From NCBI GenBank assembly GCA_050173015.1, contig JBFXLE010000030.1, forward strand, positions 1-38,813: 38,813 bases of DNA, written 5' to 3'. Below, one piece after another: positions 1-22,390 of this stretch. Position 1 is the first letter of the stretch. The number at the start of each line of letters is the position of its first letter. Source of the stretch: Calditrichaceae bacterium. GTDB taxonomy: Bacteria; Calditrichota; Calditrichia; Calditrichales; JBFXGD01. Below the pieces are notes generated by a model. That model worked only from the letters and a program-made list of their open reading frames with translations, was not told the origin of the DNA and searched no databases. Position numbers and translations under genes: made by a program.

Positions 1-121
1 TTAAATTGCCCTTAGTTTATCAATGAGTTCTGATGCTGTAAATATACATAACTTCATGTTAATTAGAAAGTTAAAAGAAACTGCAACATCCTGTGGTAAG
101 GGGGAAACTGCCCGTTCTTAC

Positions 122-191
122 TCTTTTTTCTTTTATCTTTTATCTTTTTTCTTAACCTTCCTACTTCCTACTTCTTACTTCCCACTTCTTC
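122..191. repeat. Degenerate tandem heptamer array (10 units), pyrimidine-rich
   Basis: Period-7 units: TCTTTTT TCTTTTA TCTTTTA TCTTTTT TCTTAAC CTTCCTA CTTCCTA CTTCTTA CTTCCCA CTTCTTC. Confidence 0.8.
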
Positions 192-340
192 TCCTCCGCT
201 CTGTAGCAAAATCTATTACAGGATTTTCACAATTTCTGCTATTTTGCCGCCCCGCCCGCGTTTGTATGTTATCATAACTCATTTTCTTAAAAAGCGTTAA
301 TTATGCATTCAAATATCATGTACCCCATTAATTTTTTTAA

Positions 341-1720
<1,380 letters not shown>

Positions 1721-1758
1721 CAAAAGTTTTTTGATCCAATCTTAAATTTTTTCATAAT

Positions 1759-1783
1759 AAGCCCGTCCCGGCGGGCTTTTTTT
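1759..1783 (+). terminator. Rho-independent terminator after gdhA
   Basis: AAGCCCGT-CCCG-GCGGGCTT stem-loop running into a T7 tract. Confidence 0.85.
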
Positions 1784-1792
1784 AAACAGTTC

Positions 1793-1821
1793 TTGTCAAT
1801 CGAAACAATAAATGATATTTT
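1793..1821 (+). promoter_or_regulatory. Putative sigma70 promoter for the PPDK_N-like/Zn-ribbon/gdh2 operon
   Basis: TTGTCA-17 nt-TATTTT with an extended -10 TG, just after the terminator and about 40 nt before ATG 1859. Confidence 0.45.
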
Positions 1822-1858
1822 ATTGTTGAAATTTTAGTATTTACCGGATAACCAAATT

Positions 1859-4800
1859 ATGAAGAACGAACCGGGAACAATAGATAAATATACCGATCCG
1901 CTCTGGGTTGAGCATGGGTACGGAACGCGGTTTCAGGGTTTTCAGAATCTGATGCGTTTCCGGATCAGGGATATCTTGCTGGTCTCCAGTCTGTACGATT
2001 TATATGTCTTTGAAGAAGACGGCCGTCTATACGAGCTGATCCGCAATGAATACCAGGGCCTGAATCTCAGCCATTCGCCGGAGATCACCCGTGTATCCAG
2101 CGGAAAAGAAGCGCTCGCCATCGCTCAGGAAGAGAGACGGTTTGATCTGATTATCACAACCCAGCATATTGAAGACATGCCCGCCACAGAACTTGGTAGC
2201 CTGGTTCATCAATCCGATCTGGATATTCCCATCGTCTTGCTTGCGTATGATAACCGTGAGCTGTCAGAACTGATGGATCACTGTGATACCACTGTTTTTG
2301 ACCGCATTTTCATCTGGACCGGAAATTTCAGGATCATTATCGCCATCGTCAAGCATTTCGAAGACCGGATGAATGTGGATCACGACACACGGATCGTAGG
2401 TGTTCAGTCCATCATTCTTATTGAAGACAACGTCCGGTTTTATTCATCTTTTCTGCCGATTTTATACACGGAGATACTCAACCAATCCCAGCGGCTTATC
2501 TCCGAAGGAATCAATCTGACACATAAATATCTCAGAATGCGGGCCCGGCCAAAGATATTGTTATGCACTAATTACGAAGAAGCCTGGGAATATTATGAGA
2601 AGTATGAAGAATACGTTCTTGGAGTCATTTCCGATATTGATTTTTATCATGAGGGGAAGCAGGATCCGCTGGCGGGAATTACCCTTGCTTCAAATGTGAG
2701 AAAAAGGCACTATGATATTCCCATACTGCTCCAGTCCACCGAGCCTTCGAATGAATCCAGGGCGCGTGAATTAGGCGCGTCATTTTTGCTTAAGAACTCC
2801 CCCACCCTGCTTCATGAGGTTCAACGCTTTACCATTGAACATTTCGGTTTCGGCGATTTTGTTTTCAGGGATGATGACGGGCGTGAAGTGGGACGGGCAA
2901 ATAATCTGGCAAATCTTGAACAGCAGTTAAAGGTTGTCCCGCCGGAGAGCATACGGTACCATGCCGAGCACAATCATTTTTCCAACTGGCTTAAGGCAAG
3001 AACGGAATTCTGGCTTGCTCATAAACTAAGACCGCGAAAAGTCTCCGACTATCCATCCATTGAAGAACTGCGCAGCGACCTGGTTTCATCATTGAAAGAA
3101 TACAGGAAACTGCAGCAGAAGGGCATTATCACCGATTTCAAAAAAAGCACTTTCGATCCGACAAGCGGATTTGCCCGTGTGGGCGGTGGTTCACTGGGTG
3201 GTAAGGCCAGGGGATTAAGTTTTGTAAACACATTGATCAATAATTACAAGGTGCAATTTCGTTTTGAAGACGTACAGATTTATGTACCACCCGGGATTGT
3301 GCTGGGAACCGATGTATTTGACGCGTATCTTGACGAAAATGACCTGAGAAGTTTCGCGCTGAATTCCAAGGATGATGTGGAAATCACCCGGCGGTTTCTG
3401 GATGCTAAAAGCTTTCCGGAAGAGATCCTTGCCGATCTTGCCGCTTTTCTGGATCTTGTCCGCGATCCGCTCGCGGTACGTTCGTCCAGCCTGCTCGAAG
3501 ATTCCCAATATCATCCCTTCGCCGGTGTCTATGAAACATATATGCTTCCCAACAGTCACGCGAATCCATTAATACGGCTGAATGAATTATTAAACGCCAT
3601 AAAAAGAGTTTACGCGTCCACATTTTACGTCGGCAGTAAAGATTATATCAAGGTGACCACCTACCGCCTCGAAGAAGAAAAAATGGCAGTGATTATTCAG
3701 AAGATGATCGGCTCTCAGTATGATGACCGTTTTTATCCCGCCTTTTCGGGGGTGGCAAAGTCCTACAACTTTTACCCCGTGCCGCCGCAAAAATCAACCG
3801 ACGGCATTGTATCTGTCGCTCTTGGTCTTGGGAAAACGGTTGTGGATGGAGGTAATACCGTTAAATTTTCACCAAAATATCCGAATCATCTCCCGCAGTT
3901 TATATCCACAAAAGAAACGCTGAGAATCAATCAGCATAAATTCTACGCGCTTGATTTTACCGCGAAGGACGGAGATTCATTTGAAACTCACGATATGCTT
4001 ATCAAACAATTTACTTTAAAGGATGCTGAAAATGACGGGACGTTGTTTTATGTCGGCTCTACCTATTCACATGAAAATCATGCTATACACGACGGACTTT
4101 CCAGGGAAGGCGCCCGGATTGTCACCTTTGCCCCGATTCTGAAAAATAAGATATTTCCACTTCCACAGATTCTGGAGCTGCTGCTGGAAATGGGGAGCTG
4201 GGGCATGGGGACACCTATCGAAATTGAATTTGCCGTCAATATTTCGGCCCAGAAAAATAAAAGAAAAGAATTTGGCCTTCTTCAGATGCGCCCACTGGTT
4301 CTTAATCGTGAAATGGAAGTGCTTAAAATTGAAGATCATAAACCTGAAAGCCTGATCTGCAAAAGCCCGCATGTTCTCGGTAACGGTATCACAGAGGATG
4401 TATACGATATTGTTTTTGTGGACTACAACGCTTTTGAGCGGTCTAAAAGCCTGGATGTGGCGAAGGAAGTCAGCGCTTTTAACTCAAAACTGATCAATGA
4501 AGAACGGCCATACCTGCTTATAGGAGTCGGACGCTGGGGTTCGCTTGACTCCTGGCTGGGCATTCCGGTCAACTGGAGCCAAATATCGGGAGCGCACGCC
4601 ATTGTGGAAACCAATTTCAAGGATTTTATGGTCACGCCTTCACAGGGTTCGCATTTTTTCCAGAACCTGACTTCATTCATGATAGGATATTTCACGGTGG
4701 ACAGCTTTAAAGGCGAGGGGTTTGTCGATTGGGACTGGCTGTTAGGTCAGGACGTGCATGAAGGTATGAAATATACAAGGCATCTCCGATTTGACAAGCC

Positions 4801-4861
4801 TGTCATAATAAAAATGAACGGTCAGCAAAATGAAGGTGTTATTTTGAAACCGGAGAACTAA
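1859..4861 (+). CDS. Receiver-domain / PEP-pyruvate-binding (PPDK_N ATP-grasp) protein; PEP-synthase-like but without the pyruvate-binding barrel
   Basis: N-terminal REC-like segments (DILLVSS, FDLII, IPIVLL; IILIEDN, VISDID, PILLQS, FLLK). ATP-grasp motifs GGKARGL, AVRSSSLLEDS..FAGVY, MAVIIQ, IEIEFA, LLQMRP. C-terminal SQGSHFFQNL. Confidence 0.85.
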   Translation: MKNEPGTIDKYTDPLWVEHGYGTRFQGFQNLMRFRIRDILLVSSLYDLYVFEEDGRLYELIRNEYQGLNLSHSPEITRVSSGKEALAIAQEERRFDLIITTQHIEDMPATELGSLVHQSDLDIPIVLLAYDNRELSELMDHCDTTVFDRIFIWTGNFRIIIAIVKHFEDRMNVDHDTRIVGVQSIILIEDNVRFYSSFLPILYTEILNQSQRLISEGINLTHKYLRMRARPKILLCTNYEEAWEYYEKYEEYVLGVISDIDFYHEGKQDPLAGITLASNVRKRHYDIPILLQSTEPSNESRARELGASFLLKNSPTLLHEVQRFTIEHFGFGDFVFRDDDGREVGRANNLANLEQQLKVVPPESIRYHAEHNHFSNWLKARTEFWLAHKLRPRKVSDYPSIEELRSDLVSSLKEYRKLQQKGIITDFKKSTFDPTSGFARVGGGSLGGKARGLSFVNTLINNYKVQFRFEDVQIYVPPGIVLGTDVFDAYLDENDLRSFALNSKDDVEITRRFLDAKSFPEEILADLAAFLDLVRDPLAVRSSSLLEDSQYHPFAGVYETYMLPNSHANPLIRLNELLNAIKRVYASTFYVGSKDYIKVTTYRLEEEKMAVIIQKMIGSQYDDRFYPAFSGVAKSYNFYPVPPQKSTDGIVSVALGLGKTVVDGGNTVKFSPKYPNHLPQFISTKETLRINQHKFYALDFTAKDGDSFETHDMLIKQFTLKDAENDGTLFYVGSTYSHENHAIHDGLSREGARIVTFAPILKNKIFPLPQILELLLEMGSWGMGTPIEIEFAVNISAQKNKRKEFGLLQMRPLVLNREMEVLKIEDHKPESLICKSPHVLGNGITEDVYDIVFVDYNAFERSKSLDVAKEVSAFNSKLINEERPYLLIGVGRWGSLDSWLGIPVNWSQISGAHAIVETNFKDFMVTPSQGSHFFQNLTSFMIGYFTVDSFKGEGFVDWDWLLGQDVHEGMKYTRHLRFDKPVIIKMNGQQNEGVILKPEN

Positions 4862-4862
4862 T

Positions 4863-5072
4863 TTGAAAAACAAAGACGGCAAAAAACCTGAAGGAGTTAT
4901 AAGAACAACCAGAATGGAGGAATGCCCGCACTGCGGCACAAAACTCAGCCCCTGGGAGCAGGTTTTACTGAGTGTTGACAGGGTTTTAATGTGCAAGAAC
5001 TGCTGGTACCGCATCATTTTGGATGTTTTCAAGGAAGATGAAACTTCGGATGATCAATTAGAGGAAAAATAA
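4863..5072 (+). CDS. Small Zn-ribbon protein (CPHC-x19-CKNC) with acidic tail
   Basis: Two CxxC pairs; fills the gap with 1-nt spacers on both sides. TTG start; alternative ATG at 4914. Confidence 0.7.
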   Translation: MKNKDGKKPEGVIRTTRMEECPHCGTKLSPWEQVLLSVDRVLMCKNCWYRIILDVFKEDETSDDQLEEK

Positions 5073-5073
5073 T

Positions 5074-6321
5074 ATGGAATCGTACAATTCCTTCCATGTC
5101 GCGCAGAAACAGGTCGTCGAAGCGGCAAAACTTTTAAACCTTGATGAGGCGACCGTTCATTTACTCAAATGGCCGCAGCGTGAATTCTCATTTACGATCC
5201 CGGTCACCATGGACAACGGAAAAGTAAACATTTTTCATGCTTACCGTATTCAGTACAATTTCGCCCGAGGCCCGGCAAAAGGGGGTATCCGTTATCATCC
5301 GGATGAAACCATCGATGTGATACGGGCGCTTGCCTCATGGATGACCTGGAAAACGGCGGTCGTTGATCTGCCCCTTGGAGGCGCCAAGGGAGGCGTGGCC
5401 TGCAATCCAAAATCCATGTCCGAGCGGGAACTTCAGAATCTATCCAGAGCGTATATCCGGGCCGTGGCTGATTATATCGGCATCGACCGTGATATTCCGG
5501 CTCCGGATGTCTATACCAATCCTCAGACCATGGCCTGGATGATGGATGAGTATGAGACGATTATCAGAAAACATCAGCCGGGTGTACTTACCGATAAACC
5601 GGGGCCGATTGGCGGAACAGAAGGCCGCAGAGACGCGACAGCCCGGGGCGGAGTGATTACCGTCGGGGAAGCATGCAAGACGCTTGGAGTTGATCCGACC
5701 GGAAAATACGCGATTCAGGGATTCGGAAATGCCGGTCAGAGAGCCGCGTTTCTGCATCAGGAATTACTCGGCGGCGGTAAATTAGTGGCGGTGTGTGATT
5801 CCCGCGGAGGCATTTACAATGAGGAGGGACTTGATCCGAGAGAACTCGTTATGCACAAGCTGAAAACGGGGTCGGTGCTGGATTTTCCGGGATCAAAACA
5901 CATCCCCCGCGATTCTGTTCTTGAGCTTGATGTGGACGTGCTATACCCTTCCGCGCTTGAGAACGCGATCTCTGAAAAAAATGTAAACAATATCAAGGCG
6001 CGGATTATATGCGAGCTTGCCAACGGTCCCACCACTCCGGAAGCGGATCTTATTCTGCACAAGAAGGGAATCCATGTCATACCGGATATTCTTGCCAGCG
6101 CCGGAGGCGTTACCGTTTCCTTTTTTGAGATGGTTCAGGACAGTTATTCGTTTTTCTGGGATGAGGAGACTATTCACCGGCGGCTTGATGAAAAACTGAC
6201 TAAGGCCTATCACACGGTTGAAAATACCATCCGTGAAAAGAATGTTCATCCCAGGTTAGCGGCAATGGTGGTCGGTGTGGCCCGGGTGGCAGAGGCGTGT
6301 ACATTGAGAGGTTGGGTTTGA
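5074..6321 (+). CDS. Glu/Leu/Phe/Val dehydrogenase (second, short-type glutamate dehydrogenase)
   Basis: GPAKGGIRYHP, MTWK, GGAKGG, DIPAPD, ATARG, QGFGNAG, ANGP, GGVTVS. Confidence 0.92.
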   Translation: MESYNSFHVAQKQVVEAAKLLNLDEATVHLLKWPQREFSFTIPVTMDNGKVNIFHAYRIQYNFARGPAKGGIRYHPDETIDVIRALASWMTWKTAVVDLPLGGAKGGVACNPKSMSERELQNLSRAYIRAVADYIGIDRDIPAPDVYTNPQTMAWMMDEYETIIRKHQPGVLTDKPGPIGGTEGRRDATARGGVITVGEACKTLGVDPTGKYAIQGFGNAGQRAAFLHQELLGGGKLVAVCDSRGGIYNEEGLDPRELVMHKLKTGSVLDFPGSKHIPRDSVLELDVDVLYPSALENAISEKNVNNIKARIICELANGPTTPEADLILHKKGIHVIPDILASAGGVTVSFFEMVQDSYSFFWDEETIHRRLDEKLTKAYHTVENTIREKNVHPRLAAMVVGVARVAEACTLRGWV

Positions 6322-6762
6322 TTAACGAGTCTGTCCGGGCGATTTTCTGCCGGTGAACTGAAATGTAACGGAACGACTTCTGGGCCGGTTATCAAAGTCA
6401 ATCAGAATAATCTGCTGCCAGGTACCCAGATCCAATTTCCCATCCGCGACGGGAATGATCAGGGAAGGCCCCATTAACGCCGATCTTAAATGCGCGTATC
6501 CGTTACCGTCATGCCAGGTGTCATCATGGTGATACTGTTTGTTCATCGGCGCGATACGGTCAAGCATCTCAGGCAGATCTTGTATCAATCCGGGCTCATA
6601 TTCTATGGTACTGATTGCCGCTGTGGCTCCGGCGATAAAAATAAGCAGCTGCCCCTCCAAAAAACTGTTTTCGCTTACAAACTCTCGCGCGTATTCAGTC
6701 AGATTAATGATGTCGTTAAATCCACGGGTTTTCATTCCGACTTTTTTGGTTTTAATCATCAT
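6322..6762 (-). CDS. yjbQ: YjbQ/UPF0047 family protein
   Basis: GATAAISTIEYEPGL, YHHDDTWHDGNGYAHLRS, LGTWQQI..DFD.RPRSR. Start placed at ATG 6762 (or 6759) because the longer ORF runs through a terminator. Confidence 0.85.
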   Translation of the reverse strand: MMIKTKKVGMKTRGFNDIINLTEYAREFVSENSFLEGQLLIFIAGATAAISTIEYEPGLIQDLPEMLDRIAPMNKQYHHDDTWHDGNGYAHLRSALMGPSLIIPVADGKLDLGTWQQIILIDFDNRPRSRSVTFQFTGRKSPGQTR

Positions 6763-6799
6763 ACTATTATCTGAATCCTTCCGTGTATATTCGGTTAAT

Positions 6800-6828
6800 A
6801 AAAAAAGGGAGCTATTACACTCCCTTTT
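6800..6828 (-). terminator. Rho-independent terminator downstream of the response regulator gene
   Basis: Minus strand: AAAAGGGAG-TGTAATAG-CTCCC followed by T7. Confidence 0.75.
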
Positions 6829-6885
6829 CATTTATCTTTAATTTTGCTCTGAAATTGATTTTCTTCCCGGCTGCCGTCGGAAAAC

Positions 6886-7362
6886 TTAGTCGATGAGAGA
6901 CGCCAGAATAATACCAAGAATCAGCCATATCGGAATGGAAATCAGTAAAGCCCAGATAATGCCGTTGGCCGTTTTTAAGGAATGTGTCAATCCTTTTTTC
7001 TCAAATGCGCGATTAATCTTCAAACGGACTTCCTCGATATGAAAAGGTTTGGTCAGATAATCGTACGCGCCCTTTTTAATCGCCTCCACCGCTGTTTCGA
7101 TGGTCGGATGCGCTGTTATCATCAGGAAGATTGTATTTTTATTTAAGGCGCGGACTCGCTTCAGGAGTTCAATACCATCCATTTGAGGCATATAAAGATC
7201 GGAAAGTATGACATCAACAGGCTGCTTTTTAAGGATTTCCAGCGCTTCTTTTCCGTTTGCCGCCACGTAGGGAACATACTCCATGCTCTTTAACACGTTT
7301 TGAAGTGTATCCCGTACATCTTCCTCATCATCAACAACAAGTACCGTTCTGATTTGGCTCAT
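6886..7362 (-). CDS. Response regulator receiver protein with C-terminal transmembrane helix
   Basis: VVDDE, ILSDLYMP, ITAH, GAYDYLTKPF; tail GIIWALLISIPIWLILGIILASL; GAGGAG RBS upstream. Confidence 0.9.
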   Translation of the reverse strand: MSQIRTVLVVDDEEDVRDTLQNVLKSMEYVPYVAANGKEALEILKKQPVDVILSDLYMPQMDGIELLKRVRALNKNTIFLMITAHPTIETAVEAIKKGAYDYLTKPFHIEEVRLKINRAFEKKGLTHSLKTANGIIWALLISIPIWLILGIILASLID

Positions 7363-7463
7363 AACATCTCCTCATTTACTTCCATAGAAATAATCATCGG
7401 CAACCTTGCGAAAGATATTTAGAATAGAAAGCAATTTATGCGCATTTTTGCTTCAGAACAAAT

Positions 7464-8291
7464 CTATTCTAAAATAGATCTAAAATTGGTCCAACTGAAC
7501 TCATCAAGCAGTTCGGCGAGTTTTTTACTGTTCTTATTAATATTGTAATAATGGCGCCAGGTTTGAATCGAACCCAGATTCAACTTCTTTTGATGAACAT
7601 CAAACTCCCATGGATGAATATACATAATAACAGGAGCGTCATCCTTATTCATTTGTTTTATGGCGTAACGCGTAAACCAGTTAGGCAGAATTCTCAGATA
7701 GCCCCCGCCTCCGAACGGCACATTTACACCAAATAATTTGAGCGTCGGCATCGGAAATTCGATCAGCTTCCTGCCGTTTTTTTCAAAAGCGGTGTAGGGA
7801 AATCTTGGAGCATCCGCCACACCGTACCTGTCATGCCAGATGGGGTAAACGGAAGAATCGTACTTTATTCCCAGTTCCAGCATAATTTCCCATGCCCAGA
7901 ACGTTTTTTTAACCACTGAAAATGTCGGCGCCCTGAATCCGACAATTTCCTGCCCGGATAAATCTTCCAGAATTTTAATCGATTCCATCAGATCCTGTCT
8001 GAATTCATCGGGAGACAGTTTTGTCAGCATCCTGTGATTATTCCCATGACTTGCTATTTCATGTCCGGCGGCAGCCATTTTTTTTATCATTTGCGGATTA
8101 TGTTTCGCGACCCACCCGAGTGTAAAAAAAGTGGCTTTTAAATCTTTTTCAGCGAAAATATCCAGCAGCTTATCAATATTTTTCGCCACACGCTGTGGTT
8201 GATCTTCCCAGGAACTCCTTTTGAAGCGATGCTGCAGCGCTTCCGGATGATACCAATCTTCAACGTCAACAGACAAAATATTTTTCACCAT
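7464..8291 (-). CDS. Polysaccharide deacetylase (CE4/NodB, DUF3473-type)
   Basis: SVDVEDW, ATFFTLG, HEIASHGNNH, GFRAPTFS, YDSS, GGGYLR, YIHPWE. Confidence 0.9.
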   Translation of the reverse strand: MVKNILSVDVEDWYHPEALQHRFKRSSWEDQPQRVAKNIDKLLDIFAEKDLKATFFTLGWVAKHNPQMIKKMAAAGHEIASHGNNHRMLTKLSPDEFRQDLMESIKILEDLSGQEIVGFRAPTFSVVKKTFWAWEIMLELGIKYDSSVYPIWHDRYGVADAPRFPYTAFEKNGRKLIEFPMPTLKLFGVNVPFGGGGYLRILPNWFTRYAIKQMNKDDAPVIMYIHPWEFDVHQKKLNLGSIQTWRHYYNINKNSKKLAELLDEFSWTNFRSILE

Positions 8292-18570: not shown

Positions 18571-19890
18571 TTAAAATTTGATGATATTATCATAGTCCGC
18601 TTCAGCCTGATGCTTCTTAAGATCAACGGACAATTTCCCCGCCTTTGCGTAAATATCCTCTCCCAATAATTCCCGGACAGATGAGAGAAGTTCCTGTTCA
18701 TCTAATTTGAAATCGAATCCCGCTAACATTTGATAATCGCCATAGGGCCAGGAATATTCCAGGACATCCATGGGTGTTTCCCGCGCTATCGGAATGATCG
18801 TTTTGCTTACGCCTAATTTCTCCAGTCGCCTTCCGTTTCCTTCCTGTTCTGAATGAGAAGGTATGACAATGGACGGTTTTCCGGACAGCACCACTTCCAT
18901 CGCTGTTCCGTAACCGCCGTGAAATATAACCAGGTCACTTTGTCGGATGGCTGATGTTCCCGGCGCCCAATCGACAAATTGTATATTTGCGGATCGGCGG
19001 TTGTACTTTGCCGCTTTTACACGTTTGCCGGTTGAAACGAGTACATCAAATTCTGTTTTGTTGAATGCGGAGATAATCGATTCAAAAAATTGTTTTTCAT
19101 TTGCCCTTGCGGCTCCGCCGCCGATTGTCACATAAATTTTAGGATATTCATCCTTATTATCAAACAAAGGGATGCTTTTACCGGGTCCATGAAATTCTGA
19201 AAGCGCGCCACAATAAATAACGCTGTTTTCATCGTCCTTAACCGGTTCAAGTTTGCGGCTGGACGGGATGACATACCGGTCACCGGTCAGAAGATCTTCC
19301 GCCTTCGACATTCCATTAAACGACAATTTGTCCATGAGATCGCTAAAGGGCATCAGGGCGTCAGGTTCGGTATATGTCCATTTTTTTCTTTCCCACCACA
19401 AAAACTTTGGATGGGGAGGGTAGCCGGCCAGTCGGGTGATCTGGACCACGGGAAGATTAAATTTACGGCCGAGGGGCCAGGTCAGGAAATGTGTATCCCC
19501 CACAAGGATATCCGGCTTGAATTCATCCACAATCTTTGCAAGCTGATTGAATCGATAATTTACCAGCCGCGGACTCAGATAACCGTCCCTCGGAACCTGA
19601 TACGCGAGACTTCCAAAACCAACAAAAACCGGATACTTTGTTATCCGCGTATTCAATTGAACCGCAGGCTTAAAGGGTTTTTTGAATTGATATTTTACAA
19701 TCCGCTCTTTCTTCGTATTGAGCAAAAATGAGCGTATATTTTCTTTTTGGGATGATTTAAAATGTTTCTCTTCGAGAACAATCGCTGAGTCGTGCCCTTT
19801 TTCTCTCAGCTTATTCGCTAAATAAATGCAGCGCGCGACATGCCCGCGGCCACCACCGTGATCACTTGGAATAAATAGTATCTTCGACAT
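18571..19890 (-). CDS. GT-B glycosyltransferase (GT1/GT28-like)
   Basis: GGGRGHVARC, PDILVGD, IYVTIGG, DW.P, FHGGYGT..E....GKP.IVIP...EQ..N..RLE.LG. Confidence 0.85.
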   Translation of the reverse strand: MSKILFIPSDHGGGRGHVARCIYLANKLREKGHDSAIVLEEKHFKSSQKENIRSFLLNTKKERIVKYQFKKPFKPAVQLNTRITKYPVFVGFGSLAYQVPRDGYLSPRLVNYRFNQLAKIVDEFKPDILVGDTHFLTWPLGRKFNLPVVQITRLAGYPPHPKFLWWERKKWTYTEPDALMPFSDLMDKLSFNGMSKAEDLLTGDRYVIPSSRKLEPVKDDENSVIYCGALSEFHGPGKSIPLFDNKDEYPKIYVTIGGGAARANEKQFFESIISAFNKTEFDVLVSTGKRVKAAKYNRRSANIQFVDWAPGTSAIRQSDLVIFHGGYGTAMEVVLSGKPSIVIPSHSEQEGNGRRLEKLGVSKTIIPIARETPMDVLEYSWPYGDYQMLAGFDFKLDEQELLSSVRELLGEDIYAKAGKLSVDLKKHQAEADYDNIIKF

Positions 19891-22390
19891 CCATTTCCTT
19901 ATCTGTTCGCTCTAGTATTAAGATTTCACCTTTTCCACCGTCAACCCTTATTCGGTCTCCTGTTTTTATTACTTTTGTAATCCCCGTAACTGCCGTTACC
20001 ATCGGCAAACCGTATTCACGGGCTATGATCGCGCCGTGTGAAAGCGCTCCGCCTATCTCGGTCACCACTGCCGATGCGTTTACAAACAGCGGCGTCCATC
20101 CGGGATTAGTCGATTTTGTAATCAGAATTTCATTTTTCTTCAAAGACTCCGCAGTTTCAGGATCATCCAGCACCCTGGCGAATCCTTCCACAATACCACC
20201 GCTGCATCCAATCCCTGAATACAAATCGCCGTCGGAAAATTCGTGCCTTTCGGCCGGAATCCATTGCCCGCCAATCTGACGAAGCACGGCCGGATGCATT
20301 TCAGACAGCATTCTTATTCGTTCTTCTTTTCGCTTCTGAATGGTTGGAATATATGCAAAAAACTCATTTCCCGTAACAACTATTTTTTCGATTTCCCCAT
20401 GAGTTAAAAACAGTATATCAAGAGGTTCTGAAAGCGAATGATTGTTGTCGGAAATCTCAGCGATGCTCAAAACATGCTTTTTTAACTCGCTATGAGCATG
20501 AATCAACGCTTGTTTTAGATTTTCACGGAATGTCGTAAAAAACTCCGTTCTTTTAAGTACATAGTTAAAAAATAACTTTTTAGGGGTTTTCCCTAATCCG
20601 GATATTGACCTGAGGGCAAGACTTATATTCCGCTTTCTCTCATCGGCCAGCGCCGAAAATTCCCTGACCGTGTGCTTAGAATTCATTCCCTGCAGATACC
20701 TTCGGATACCCAGATAAACAATACCCGGATCTTCCCGCCAGCGCGGATAGTAGAGTTCAAATTCATGAAAAGAATTATGCCCGTATTTTTCGATGAATTG
20801 ATCTATCAGGCTAAATATTTCTTTCCCTTCCGGTGTCTTCATTAATTCGGCTTCGATGGATTTATAATTTTTTTTATGGATAAATAATTCCGCAATCCGC
20901 TTATTCTTCGCCGCGACGTCAGCCAAAGATCTAAGCTCGGCGCCGCTCCTGGCGCTGTCGGCTGAATTGAGTCCGGTGAGCAGCATATCCGCGCTGATAT
21001 CGATTTGCGGTTTAATCCAGGTTGAGCACCATTTGTTCAATAGTTGATAATAAATCTCGCCAAAAATCGTTCCGGCAATATGGCGCGTCATTATTTTGCT
21101 CTGCAAATCCCTGATAGCTATGATCTTATCGAATGATTCTTTCGCGGAATCCCTTTTAAGATATCTGAGTTTCATTAATTGTTCAGGAAAAGATTTCAAA
21201 AGATTTTTAATTTCTCCCGGCAATTTTATCGAAAAAAATCCGATATAAATCAAACTTTTTAAGAGCAATAATTTCTTATGGATACCTTTGTATGTGCTCA
21301 GATAAAATATGTTTAAAGTATTTTCAAGCGCCGTTTTGTTAAGATATACTTTCCCCTTGTAGAGTCCGAACAAGCCTTCATCCGGATAGGACCTGATTCC
21401 AACGCGTTTCAGAAAATGCTTAAATGCTCCGTTGGTCAGCGGATTCAGCAGACTCCATGTATATGGGGTCACGATATCTGGTATTACTTCTCCGACATTT
21501 TCATCCGTCCAGATGATTTCATCAGCCGGGCGCAGTTTCGCGGTGACCGGACGCGCCTGTAAAAAATAAATGTCATGATCCCTTATCGCCCATTCCAGAT
21601 CCAGCGGAAACCCGAATTTTTTTTCCAGTTTCAGGGCGTGTGAAGCGAGACGGATATATAAATCATTTATATTCAGATCTTTTGATCTTTTAAGAAGGGC
21701 TTTTTTATTGATAATAATCCGCTCAGGAGTCGCCTCACCGCTGACCAGTGTATCACCGGTTCCTTCCACATATTCGATCATCAGTTCCTTTTGGTTTCCG
21801 GAGGACGGATTCACCGTAAACAATACACCGGCCAGATCTGATTGAATCATTTTCTGAATGATGACACCCGGCCCCTGATCGATGGATAACATCCCGCGCG
21901 TTTTTTGATAGATAAGATTCCGCGGGTTAAACTGAGAGCTCCAGACCATCTTAACCGCGTTTAATATGTCATCCGGATTATTTCTGACGTTCAATACTGA
22001 ATCATACTGACCGGCAAAAGATTGATCCGTCAGGTCTTCACTCAATCCCGAAGACCTGACGGCAAGCGTATCGCCGGGGGCAAGATTCAGCCGGCTGACG
22101 CCTGATTCAATTTCGGACCGTATTTTTAATGGGACATCAGCCTTTAGAAAGGCATTTTGCAAGTTCCCGCTCACTGCCCGGATTTCATCTTCCGGATTTA
22201 TACCCAACATTCCATTAAGATCTTTCAAAAGCGAATTTTTTTTCAAATAGAATGAATAAGCCCCGGGCGATAGAAATACGGAGGCCGGAATCCTGACTCC
22301 CATTTTACTGAGTTTTATCAGATTATAAGCCTTCTGTCCCACCCGCTCCGGATTTACATTTTCATTGATCAAATGTATAAATTGATACAT
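19862..22390 (-). CDS. PEP-utilising dikinase of RPH/PigC architecture (ATP-grasp, central substrate domain, His swivel)
   Basis: VGQKAYNL, LAVRSSG..ED....SFAGQY, LDLEWA, FLQARPVT, WT..NVGE..P...TP, YGH....E.EL..PRW.EDP, T.PGWTPLF, GGALSHGAIIAREYG.P. Confidence 0.9.
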   Translation of the reverse strand: MYQFIHLINENVNPERVGQKAYNLIKLSKMGVRIPASVFLSPGAYSFYLKKNSLLKDLNGMLGINPEDEIRAVSGNLQNAFLKADVPLKIRSEIESGVSRLNLAPGDTLAVRSSGLSEDLTDQSFAGQYDSVLNVRNNPDDILNAVKMVWSSQFNPRNLIYQKTRGMLSIDQGPGVIIQKMIQSDLAGVLFTVNPSSGNQKELMIEYVEGTGDTLVSGEATPERIIINKKALLKRSKDLNINDLYIRLASHALKLEKKFGFPLDLEWAIRDHDIYFLQARPVTAKLRPADEIIWTDENVGEVIPDIVTPYTWSLLNPLTNGAFKHFLKRVGIRSYPDEGLFGLYKGKVYLNKTALENTLNIFYLSTYKGIHKKLLLLKSLIYIGFFSIKLPGEIKNLLKSFPEQLMKLRYLKRDSAKESFDKIIAIRDLQSKIMTRHIAGTIFGEIYYQLLNKWCSTWIKPQIDISADMLLTGLNSADSARSGAELRSLADVAAKNKRIAELFIHKKNYKSIEAELMKTPEGKEIFSLIDQFIEKYGHNSFHEFELYYPRWREDPGIVYLGIRRYLQGMNSKHTVREFSALADERKRNISLALRSISGLGKTPKKLFFNYVLKRTEFFTTFRENLKQALIHAHSELKKHVLSIAEISDNNHSLSEPLDILFLTHGEIEKIVVTGNEFFAYIPTIQKRKEERIRMLSEMHPAVLRQIGGQWIPAERHEFSDGDLYSGIGCSGGIVEGFARVLDDPETAESLKKNEILITKSTNPGWTPLFVNASAVVTEIGGALSHGAIIAREYGLPMVTAVTGITKVIKTGDRIRVDGGKGEILILERTDKEMDVEDTIYSK

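Follow-up and report, generated by a model that had tools for sequence, protein, structure and literature searches.

A receiver-linked protein resembling the first half of a PEP synthase, encoded beside glutamate dehydrogenase genes in many bacterial lineages, is a candidate regulator of glutamate dehydrogenase

Introduction

Glutamate dehydrogenase (GDH) connects carbon with nitrogen metabolism and, unlike glutamine synthetase, which is controlled by GlnE and GlnD, it is under no general post-translational control system that we know of in bacteria. In this report, we analyzed a 38,813-nt stretch of DNA from a Calditrichaceae bacterium (contig JBFXLE010000030.1 of assembly GCA_050173015.1, the whole of which is called the window below) and focused on a three-gene unit next to the GDH gene gdhA. 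The first gene of this unit encodes a 1000-aa protein, which we refer to as BIG, with two receiver regions, an ATP-grasp domain, and a C-terminal domain carrying an invariant His. BIG belongs to a widespread, unstudied family whose pairing with GDH genes suggests that a central nitrogen enzyme is under a control not yet described.

Gene organization at the locus

A scan of the window for open reading frames (ORFs) places the three genes directly 3' of gdhA, with neighbors in the unit 1 nt apart. The features of this region, all on the forward strand, are the following.

347–1720 (+): gdhA, encoding a 457-aa NADP-type hexameric GDH
1759–1786 (+): intrinsic-terminator-like stem-loop plus T run, 3' of gdhA (stem-loop itself 1759–1778)
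1793–1821 (+): promoter-like site TTGTCA-17-TATTTT with a TG upstream, preceding the three-gene unit (consensus match only)
1859–4861 (+): ORF of BIG, the 1000-aa receiver/ATP-grasp/His-domain protein
4863–5072 (+): zinc-ribbon micro-ORF, 69 aa from TTG 4863 or 52 aa from ATG 4914
5074–6321 (+): GDH2, encoding a 415-aa archaeal/Thermotoga-type hexameric GDH

A single base lies between the BIG stop (4861) and TTG 4863, and likewise between the stop at 5072 and ATG 5074. These ORF coordinates agree with the arrangement described in an earlier note on this DNA, which reported 1-nt gaps, a promoter-like element, and a position downstream of gdhA. The terminator-like hairpin behind gdhA has an 8-bp stem with five GC pairs and a 4-nt loop, and is followed by TTTTTTT. 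We call the site at 1793–1821 only promoter-like because the scan as a whole, with 18 sites versus 11.9 ± 4.3 in shuffled sequences, does not exceed its shuffles. Matches to the sigma-54 promoter consensus numbered 8 versus 13.9 expected, none of them close to the unit, and no Rfam family matched positions 1–7500 of the window at E ≤ 0.1.

Domain architecture of BIG

The structure of BIG was modeled with AlphaFold2 (AF2) from a 54-sequence alignment (mean pLDDT 88.6, pTM 0.82), and residue conservation was counted over the alignment of 54 BIG relatives. The domains, given with their coordinates in the window and in the protein, are as follows.

1964–2338 (+), residues ~36–160: REC1, a pseudo-receiver with a receiver-like beta-alpha pattern in the AF2 model
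2399–2851 (+), residues 181–331: REC2, a receiver with canonical residues (acceptor D259, codon 2633–2635)
2894–3115 (+), residues ~346–419: DUF5752-like helical domain (Pfam PF19027)
3191–4336 (+), residues 445–826: PPDK_N-type ATP-grasp (PF01326, E 5.3e-38)
4337–4858 (+), residues ~827–1000: C-terminal domain, divergent and phospho-His-swivel-like in structure models

The two REC-like regions recognized from the letters alone both have a receiver fold, but they are not equivalent: the first is a pseudo-receiver, and the acceptor Asp is found only in the second. REC1, which gives a sub-threshold match to Pfam Response_reg at residues 68–131 (28.5 bits versus a cut-off of 30.2), is classed as a pseudo-receiver because it lacks both the acidic pair, replaced by S43/S44, and the acceptor Asp, at whose position there is T or M. 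REC2 (residues 182–331) aligns with Spo0F, DivK, YycF, and further receivers at VIA-align Z scores of 13–14, and its key residues are widely kept among the relatives (E189 in 51, D190 in 44, D259 in 45, S293 in 50, and K312 in 51). Although the Pfam receiver score of REC2 is under the cut-off, its fold and residue set fit a two-component receiver, and judging from these residues it is probably functional. As a tandem, the receivers match PleD (Foldseek, E 3e-8). No histidine kinase gene is conserved beside the BIG gene among the recurrent neighbors of related loci. The helical domain that follows scores 29.2 bits against PF19027 (cut-off 23) when residues 308–445 are scanned alone, covering positions 19–106 of the 208-position profile.

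The output part of BIG resembles the first half of a dikinase. The ATP-grasp (model residues 437–815) superposes on residues 7–315 of rifampin phosphotransferase (RPH) with a VIA-align Z of 26.5, and K449, R451, R541, E790, and Q809 are invariant in 54/54 relatives. No Pfam match to the PEP-utilizers_C pyruvate/phosphoenolpyruvate (PEP) barrel is found in BIG, whose chain stops at residue 1000, after the His domain. Nor is there a substrate-binding insert of the RPH/PigC kind, the ATP-grasp ending at ~826 and the His domain beginning at ~827–832. The NCBIfam equivalog models score low on BIG, with 29.9 bits versus 999 for RPH, 50.4 versus 1300 for PigC, and 22–64 bits versus cut-offs of 598–1063 for the PEP synthase (PEPS) models. 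By the features that define those enzymes, BIG is neither a PEP synthase nor a pyruvate phosphate dikinase (PPDK) nor an RPH, because the barrel and the RPH/PigC-type insert are both missing. The initial reading of an apparently intact ATP-grasp and a C-terminal SQGSHFF motif in a protein with no pyruvate-binding barrel holds on every count.

A C-terminal domain resembling phospho-His swivels

Even at E ≤ 10, no Pfam family, PF00391 included, matches the C-terminal domain, which is nevertheless the best-conserved part of BIG. The domain contains the motif PSQGSHFFQ (residues 927–935; H932 codon 4652–4654). R892, E917, S928, H932, and F933 are invariant in 54/54 relatives, and position 931 is Ser or Thr in 46/54, like the canonical [ST]-H. 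A separate model of the domain, made from 46 sequences, has a pLDDT of 91.3. In this domain, searches differed in what they returned. Foldseek with the isolated domain against the PDB gave nothing at E ≤ 0.001, the best match being PPDK 5lu4 at E 0.02, and the ESM Atlas queried with the 186 aa of residues 815–1000 gave only fragments of BIG's own family. An exhaustive VIA-align comparison over 48,161 chains put phospho-His carrier domains at ranks 1–4, 6, 7, and 9. These are the phosphoryl-carrier domain of PPDK in a nuclear magnetic resonance structure (2fm4, Z 7.5, 117/128 residues aligned), the PEP-utilizer-like C-terminal domain of Bacillus stearothermophilus pyruvate kinase (Z 7.3), the central domain of maize PPDK (Z 7.2), the His domain of RPH (residues 756–867, Z 7.1), and, at the last three of these ranks, the phospho-His domains of Enzyme I (EI) and EI-Ntr (Z 5.9–6.6). 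In the comparison with the PPDK His-swivel that had been suggested as a check, VIA-align thus placed carriers at the top, and Foldseek reached only E 0.02.

In the full-length model, the ATP-grasp and the C-terminal domain superpose as one unit. Model residues 426–999 align with residues 4–467 of PEP synthase 2ols (Z 26.3, 367 aligned), residues 437–998 with 7–866 of RPH 5hv3 (Z 25.9), and residues 437–999 with 7–511 of PPDK 1dik (Z 19.4). In the AF2 model, H932 sits at the N terminus of helix 931–939, behind strand 912–918 and a loop, and this strand-loop-[ST]-His-helix order matches that of the canonical GIVTE.GG.TSHAAI, a motif that we took from the PPDK, PEPS-like, and EI-like genes of the window's phylum. 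The suggestion that the His of SQGSH is a degenerate swivel phospho-His is thus supported structurally as regards the swivel type, but "degenerate" is unfit because H932 is invariant in 54/54 relatives and in all three paralog classes described below. On these structural models, the C-terminal domain probably works like, and descends from, a phospho-His swivel while forming a separate sequence family.

GDH genes are the recurrent neighbors of the BIG family

The BIG family is large. Of the 8000 candidates scored in a 90%-clustered database, only one was not a match, and the best 120 are at least 69% identical. At E ≤ 0.001, grouping the relatives at 50% identity leaves 5237 clusters, and full-length proteins make up most of the top 150; at least 908 species genomes encode a relative. 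Among the matches listed, the closest named relatives come from metagenome-assembled genomes of Calditrichaceae/Calditrichia and Ignavibacteria, the window's phylum being sampled by only 86 species genomes in the set used. The relatives include named isolates, such as Calditrichota bacterium GD2, whose genome is complete. The names that relatives carry at source are "PEP/pyruvate-binding domain-containing protein," "histidine kinase," "response regulator," and "CheY-like chemotaxis protein." Because of such routine annotation names, the family may be miscounted as PEP synthase when the metabolism of soil and sediment phyla is reconstructed.

Gene neighborhoods were compared in the 79 best-scoring related loci, counting GDH genes by tblastn (hits of at least 250 aa); these loci are not independent rows, because many are from Acidobacteriota. 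A GDH hit occurs in the examined flanks of 50/79 loci, and in 39/79 it is no more than 700 nt away from the BIG gene. The adjacent gene is mostly of the gdhA type, upstream and co-directional (29 of the 39), the others being downstream and convergent (5), downstream and co-directional (2), of the GDH2 type and downstream (2), or upstream and divergent (1). Where at least 2 kb is available on both sides, an adjacent GDH is seen in 34/58 loci. When all flanking ORFs were clustered, GDH was the sole recurrent neighbor, with 45 loci versus 8 for the next cluster. At least nine phylum labels are represented: Calditrichota, Ignavibacteria, Bacteroidota, Acidobacteriota, Eisenbacteria, Gemmatimonadota, Myxococcota, Krumholzibacteriia, and Fibrobacteres. 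The occurrence of such proteins beside gdh genes, which the earlier note had mentioned for Bacteroidota and proposed to check by neighborhood statistics, is real and reaches far beyond that phylum. By our estimate, a random 15-kb stretch would contain a GDH gene only ~1–2% of the time, because the tested genomes have 3–7 ELFV-family matches in 3–9 Mb. Phyletic co-occurrence with GDH cannot discriminate in the same way, because PF00208 matches every genome (14/14 control genomes and 5/5 tested genomes).

The conserved partner is the upstream gdhA-type gene, and not the zinc ribbon (7/79) or GDH2 (5/79). In the 29 loci concerned, which span several phyla, the gdhA-type neighbors are 63–85% identical to gdhA of the window. 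Two explanations suggest themselves for this degree of identity: the genes may evolve very slowly, or gdhA and the BIG gene may be transferred together as a cassette. As a separate observation, some genomes have two copies of the ~1000-aa gene in one 15-kb locus (L061, L066, L053, L080, and L081).

Two further paralog classes also adjoin GDH genes

The core formed by the ATP-grasp and the His domain has two further forms in the window's phylum. A ~575-aa form (with 572-aa examples) consists of these two domains and nothing else, and a ~1065-aa form has in addition an unrecognized N-terminal region and a C-terminal Pol-beta-type nucleotidyltransferase motif (GS..GSDID). The motifs S.G[ST]HFF and GRWGS are invariant in all three classes. 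The genome of the window itself has a second GDH module (L083, 6088–14225), in which a gene for a 429-aa GDH is followed by that of a 1063-aa paralog and then by a HAMP-PAS-HisKA_3 kinase and a LuxR-type response regulator. Two further genomes from this phylum carry, in this order, a gene for a 430-aa GDH, a 572-aa gene, and a 1062- or 1069-aa gene, a few kilobases from a pair formed by a 424-aa GDH and BIG. These two regions (L084, 5167–16883; L085, 1260–15963) hold three GDH genes and three dikinase-like members within ~12–15 kb, and their 572-aa and ~1065-aa genes overlap by 4 nt. In five genomes of other lineages, 8/10 genes encoding the C-terminal His domain adjoin a GDH gene, the two exceptions being the BIG gene of a complete Calditrichia genome and one gene 9 kb from gdhA. 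With these contexts, the GDH linkage is seen to hold for a superfamily and not just for a single gene family, and, as far as gene order can tell, the contexts are the strongest argument that the superfamily may act on GDH or on the GDH reaction.

The GDHs and the zinc ribbon of the unit

Both genes flanking BIG and the micro-ORF qualify as hexameric ELFV GDHs, with ELFV_dehydrog_N and ELFV_dehydrog present in each. The upstream gdhA scores 758 bits against NCBIfam NF006929 for NADP-specific GDH (cut-off 536), matches both Pfam ELFV domains, and has the GdhA proteins of Corynebacterium glutamicum and Escherichia coli as nearest solved relatives. GDH2 matches the Pfam ELFV domains at E 6e-69 and 5e-55 and scores 552 bits against the archaeal GdhA equivalog NF040817, under the cut-off of 750; its nearest solved relatives are the GDHs of Thermococcus, Pyrococcus, and Thermotoga, followed by RocG and GudB of Bacillus subtilis.

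The micro-ORF between them has a conserved zinc-ribbon-like core, CPHCG..LSPWEQVLL..DR.L.CK.CWYRIILD, with four Cys, and every Pfam or NCBIfam zinc-ribbon match to it falls under its cut-off. It is found in 7/79 other loci, always immediately 3' of the BIG gene, and CPHC and CK.C are kept in all eight copies, that of the window included. The zinc ribbon therefore travels with BIG and is confined to its closest relatives. GDH2 is directly downstream in 5/79 related loci; five of the seven zinc-ribbon loci have GDH2 next, and two of the seven are without it. The start of the micro-ORF may be TTG 4863, which has a GGAG 8–12 nt upstream, or the alternative ATG 4914; the residues before the first Cys vary among the seven relatives.

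Discussion

A finding of this study is that a protein family that would pass by name for a PEP synthase or a response regulator has GDH as its only recurrent genomic partner. How BIG might connect the two can be proposed from its domains. A histidine kinase would phosphorylate D259 of REC2, with REC1 serving as a degenerate adaptor in the manner of PleD-type tandem receivers. Phosphorylation of D259 would gate the PPDK_N ATP-grasp, which would in turn move phosphate from ATP to H932 on the divergent, enlarged swivel domain; that H932 is phosphorylated is suggested by analogy with PPDK, PEPS, and RPH. Phospho-H932 would then most likely act on another protein, because BIG has neither a pyruvate/PEP barrel nor a small-molecule-binding insert. 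The outcome would be a post-translational control of GDH that depends on the signal and works either through phosphoryl transfer or through binding that requires phosphorylation. We regard GDH control as the most likely role because GDH is the sole conserved genomic partner of the family and of two paralog classes, and it is from this synteny that we infer GDH to be the target. In the Calditrichaceae host, BIG would set the balance between the upstream NADP-type gdhA and the downstream archaeal-type GDH2, and the zinc-ribbon microprotein would be a lineage-specific accessory. Such a signal-controlled switch would be useful because both GDHs acting together would make a futile transhydrogenase cycle. 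Taken as a whole, the reading of BIG as a response regulator whose output resembles the first half of a PEP-synthase/PPDK-type dikinase, and which works as a receiver-gated ATP-to-His phosphotransferase controlling GDH, appears to us evenly poised between right and wrong.

Comparison with known systems highlights important similarities and differences. First, RPH-Lm (PDB 5HV1, 5HV3, and 5FBS) and the PRK06241 group (PigC/RedH) share with BIG a PPDK_N ATP-grasp, a C-terminal domain that in BIG is His-carrier-like, and the lack of a PEP/pyruvate barrel. However, in RPH a large substrate-binding domain separates the ATP-grasp from the His domain, whereas in BIG the two follow each other directly; BIG adds two receivers and the DUF5752-like domain at its N terminus, and its His motif is S.G[ST]HFF rather than GG.TSH. 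Second, in PpsA/PPDK the ATP-grasp and the phospho-His swivel have the same order and relative position as the ATP-grasp and the swivel-like domain of BIG, in which the ATP-grasp Lys/Arg/Glu/Gln are invariant; PpsA/PPDK differ by their TIM barrel and PF00391 domain, whereas BIG matches neither of these, bears receivers, and is linked to GDH. Third, PleD-type regulators also have two successive receivers, one of them degenerate, ahead of an enzymatic output, but in BIG the degenerate receiver comes first and the output is a dikinase-type module rather than the GGDEF cyclase of PleD. Fourth, EI-Ntr has a phospho-His carrier of the same fold, as predicted for BIG, behind an N-terminal sensory domain and a nitrogen-related signaling role like that proposed here, although EI uses PEP through a TIM barrel, has no ATP-grasp, and passes the phosphate to NPr. 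Finally, GlnE/GlnD offer an analogy only: like BIG, they are large multidomain nucleotide-using enzymes, and BIG would be the controller of an ammonium-assimilating enzyme encoded with it. BIG has no homology to GlnE or GlnD, and covalent modification of GDH is a proposal, although the ~1063-aa paralog does carry a Pol-beta-type nucleotidyltransferase motif, from the superfamily to which GlnE/GlnD belong. A bolder version of our reading would make the S.G[ST]HFF family the catalytic core of a new, phylogenetically broad system of GDH control, covalent or phosphorylation-dependent, and the GDH counterpart of GlnE/GlnD. This system would exist in three forms—receiver-gated (~1000 aa), minimal (~575 aa), and nucleotidyltransferase-fused (~1065 aa)—all using ATP via a non-canonical phospho-His swivel. 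We put this version forward tentatively, as possible rather than probable.

Several observations weigh against the reading of BIG as a phosphotransferase controlling GDH, and some of them favor a rival. The stand-alone Z scores of the C-terminal domain (7.1–7.5) are within the tool's typical best score for unmatched models; they are weak alone but are strengthened because the matches are coherent, the domain directly follows PPDK_N, and the joint superposition works. When the domain was compared by hhalign with the canonical PEP-utilizers domains of PPDK, PEPS-like, and EI-like proteins from related genomes, the probability was 0.65%, and only the last hairpin was aligned (IIKMNGQQNEGVILKP versus I.LDG..G.VI). 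As for the link to GDH, the BIG gene of the complete Calditrichia genome is more than 1 Mb from any GDH gene, and no fusion of the BIG family to GDH was found in a search for long forms, in which eight relatives of 1028–1557 aa had no GDH domain. No biochemical data on any family member were found in the literature. A complex prediction for BIG 441–1000 with gdhA 18–457 scored 0.00, but it was run without controls and is evidence in neither direction.

The rival that survives best, which we consider unlikely but a real contender, is that BIG is a small-molecule dikinase, in which the phospho-His hands its phosphate to a metabolite of GDH or nitrogen metabolism (2-oxoglutarate, glutamate, or a nucleotide cofactor) bound in the enlarged C-terminal domain or in the DUF5752-like domain, much as RPH, PigC/RedH, and glucan-water dikinase act on small or polymeric substrates. 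All characterized PPDK_N matches (RPH, HpeI, PEP synthase, and PPDK) indeed phosphorylate non-protein substrates. Furthermore, the C-terminal domain is ~60 residues bigger than canonical swivels and has extra invariant residues (R892, W893, D897, W906, and E917), and could therefore carry a small-molecule site of its own. BIG also pairs with two types of GDH, the 450-aa gdhA or the ~424-aa forms, which share chemistry more than surface, so that a link via GDH chemistry fits as well as one via a specific protein surface. What speaks for a protein target instead is that BIG has no domain comparable to the rifampin- or pyruvate-binding domains, that the 572-aa paralogs consist of the ATP-grasp and His domain only, and that the NCBIfam RPH, PigC, and PEPS equivalogs give at most 64 bits versus 883 or more.

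A rather less likely rival is that the linkage reflects co-regulation or shared physiology, BIG having another output, such as a general carbon/nitrogen or stress signal, and GDH being neither its substrate nor its partner. In 29/79 loci, among them every one of the five from Desulfobacterales, the examined flanks contain no GDH, and several loci have the GDH gene in a convergent or divergent orientation. In the window, the terminator-like hairpin stands between gdhA and the BIG gene, which are therefore not obviously co-transcribed. The loci without GDH, however, show no alternative recurrent partner, their neighbors being heterogeneous (50 of 76 flanking ORFs, 24/29 loci), and GDH is the sole recurrent neighbor over at least nine phylum labels. 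Three structurally different paralog classes each adjoin a GDH gene, and the 1-nt gaps leading to GDH2 suggest coupled expression.

An autokinase or phosphorelay, in which the phosphate of H932 would pass to BIG's own D259 or to another response regulator, making BIG an ATP-grasp-type "histidine kinase," seems improbable. It is true that an invariant carrier-type His and a receiver with an intact acceptor set are present on one chain, and that "histidine kinase" is the source name of some relatives, although this name is automatic. However, the 572-aa and ~1063-aa paralogs keep the ATP-grasp and the His domain without a receiver, so that the conserved core does not need one, and D259 is replaced in 9/54 relatives whereas H932 is replaced in 0/54. 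Lastly, that BIG is a genuine PEP synthase or PPDK with its pyruvate-binding barrel supplied in trans is scarcely credible: PPDK_N and a His-carrier-like domain are the first two of three PEPS modules, but the conserved neighborhood has no PEP-utilizers_C gene, canonical PPDK-, PEPS-, and EI-like proteins with normal GG.TSH motifs are encoded by separate genes of the genome, and the PEPS models score far under their cut-offs on BIG.

The proposal that BIG controls GDH concerns an unstudied family. A search of the full-text literature, with subscription-only papers outside its scope, found no paper on the BIG family or on its pairing with GDH, and "DUF5752" occurred in 0 papers. PMC2890560, in the part available, deals with ordinary PEP synthase only. 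The Bacteroides thetaiotaomicron genes between BT1970 and BT1973 were considered as a homolog and dropped, BT1971 being called a catalase in the available part of PMC12596196. Conserved pairing with GDH, in a family counting at least 908 species genomes and 5237 clusters, makes the hypothesis of GDH control testable by simple biochemistry. Even if BIG acted directly on something other than GDH, its C-terminal domain would still define a new sequence family of phospho-His carriers.

Other features of the window and of related loci

In the complete Calditrichia genome mentioned above, a decarboxylase gene of the Pyridoxal_deC family, which we take to include glutamate decarboxylases, lies two genes upstream of BIG (L010, 3506–4921, reverse strand); this is a single case. 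The sole homolog longer than 1750 aa is a 1880-aa "putative PEP synthase" from the eukaryote Paratrimastix pyriformis, with 31% identity over 67% of residues 441–1000 and without a fused GDH.

Two genes on the reverse strand of the window converge on the three-gene unit: a YjbQ/UPF0047-family gene (6322–6831, −), whose ORF ends one base after the GDH2 stop, and a stand-alone receiver with a hydrophobic C-terminal tail (6886–7362, −). Neither is kept beside the relatives, the receiver being matched in 5/79 loci and the YjbQ gene in 0/79. The remaining window is occupied by a minus-strand locus for polysaccharide and type IX secretion system cargo, unrelated to the unit. Within its polysaccharide-biosynthesis/glycosyltransferase part lies a gene (19862–22390, −) for an 842-aa protein with PPDK_N and a canonical PEP-utilizers mobile domain (GGALSHGAII) but without a pyruvate barrel; by its sequence, it is a putative RPH/PigC-like dikinase. 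Finally, 5' of gdhA, positions 115–200 of the window contain pyrimidine-rich imperfect repeats (CTTTTATCTTTTATC..., CTTCCTACTTCCTACTTCTTACTTCC).

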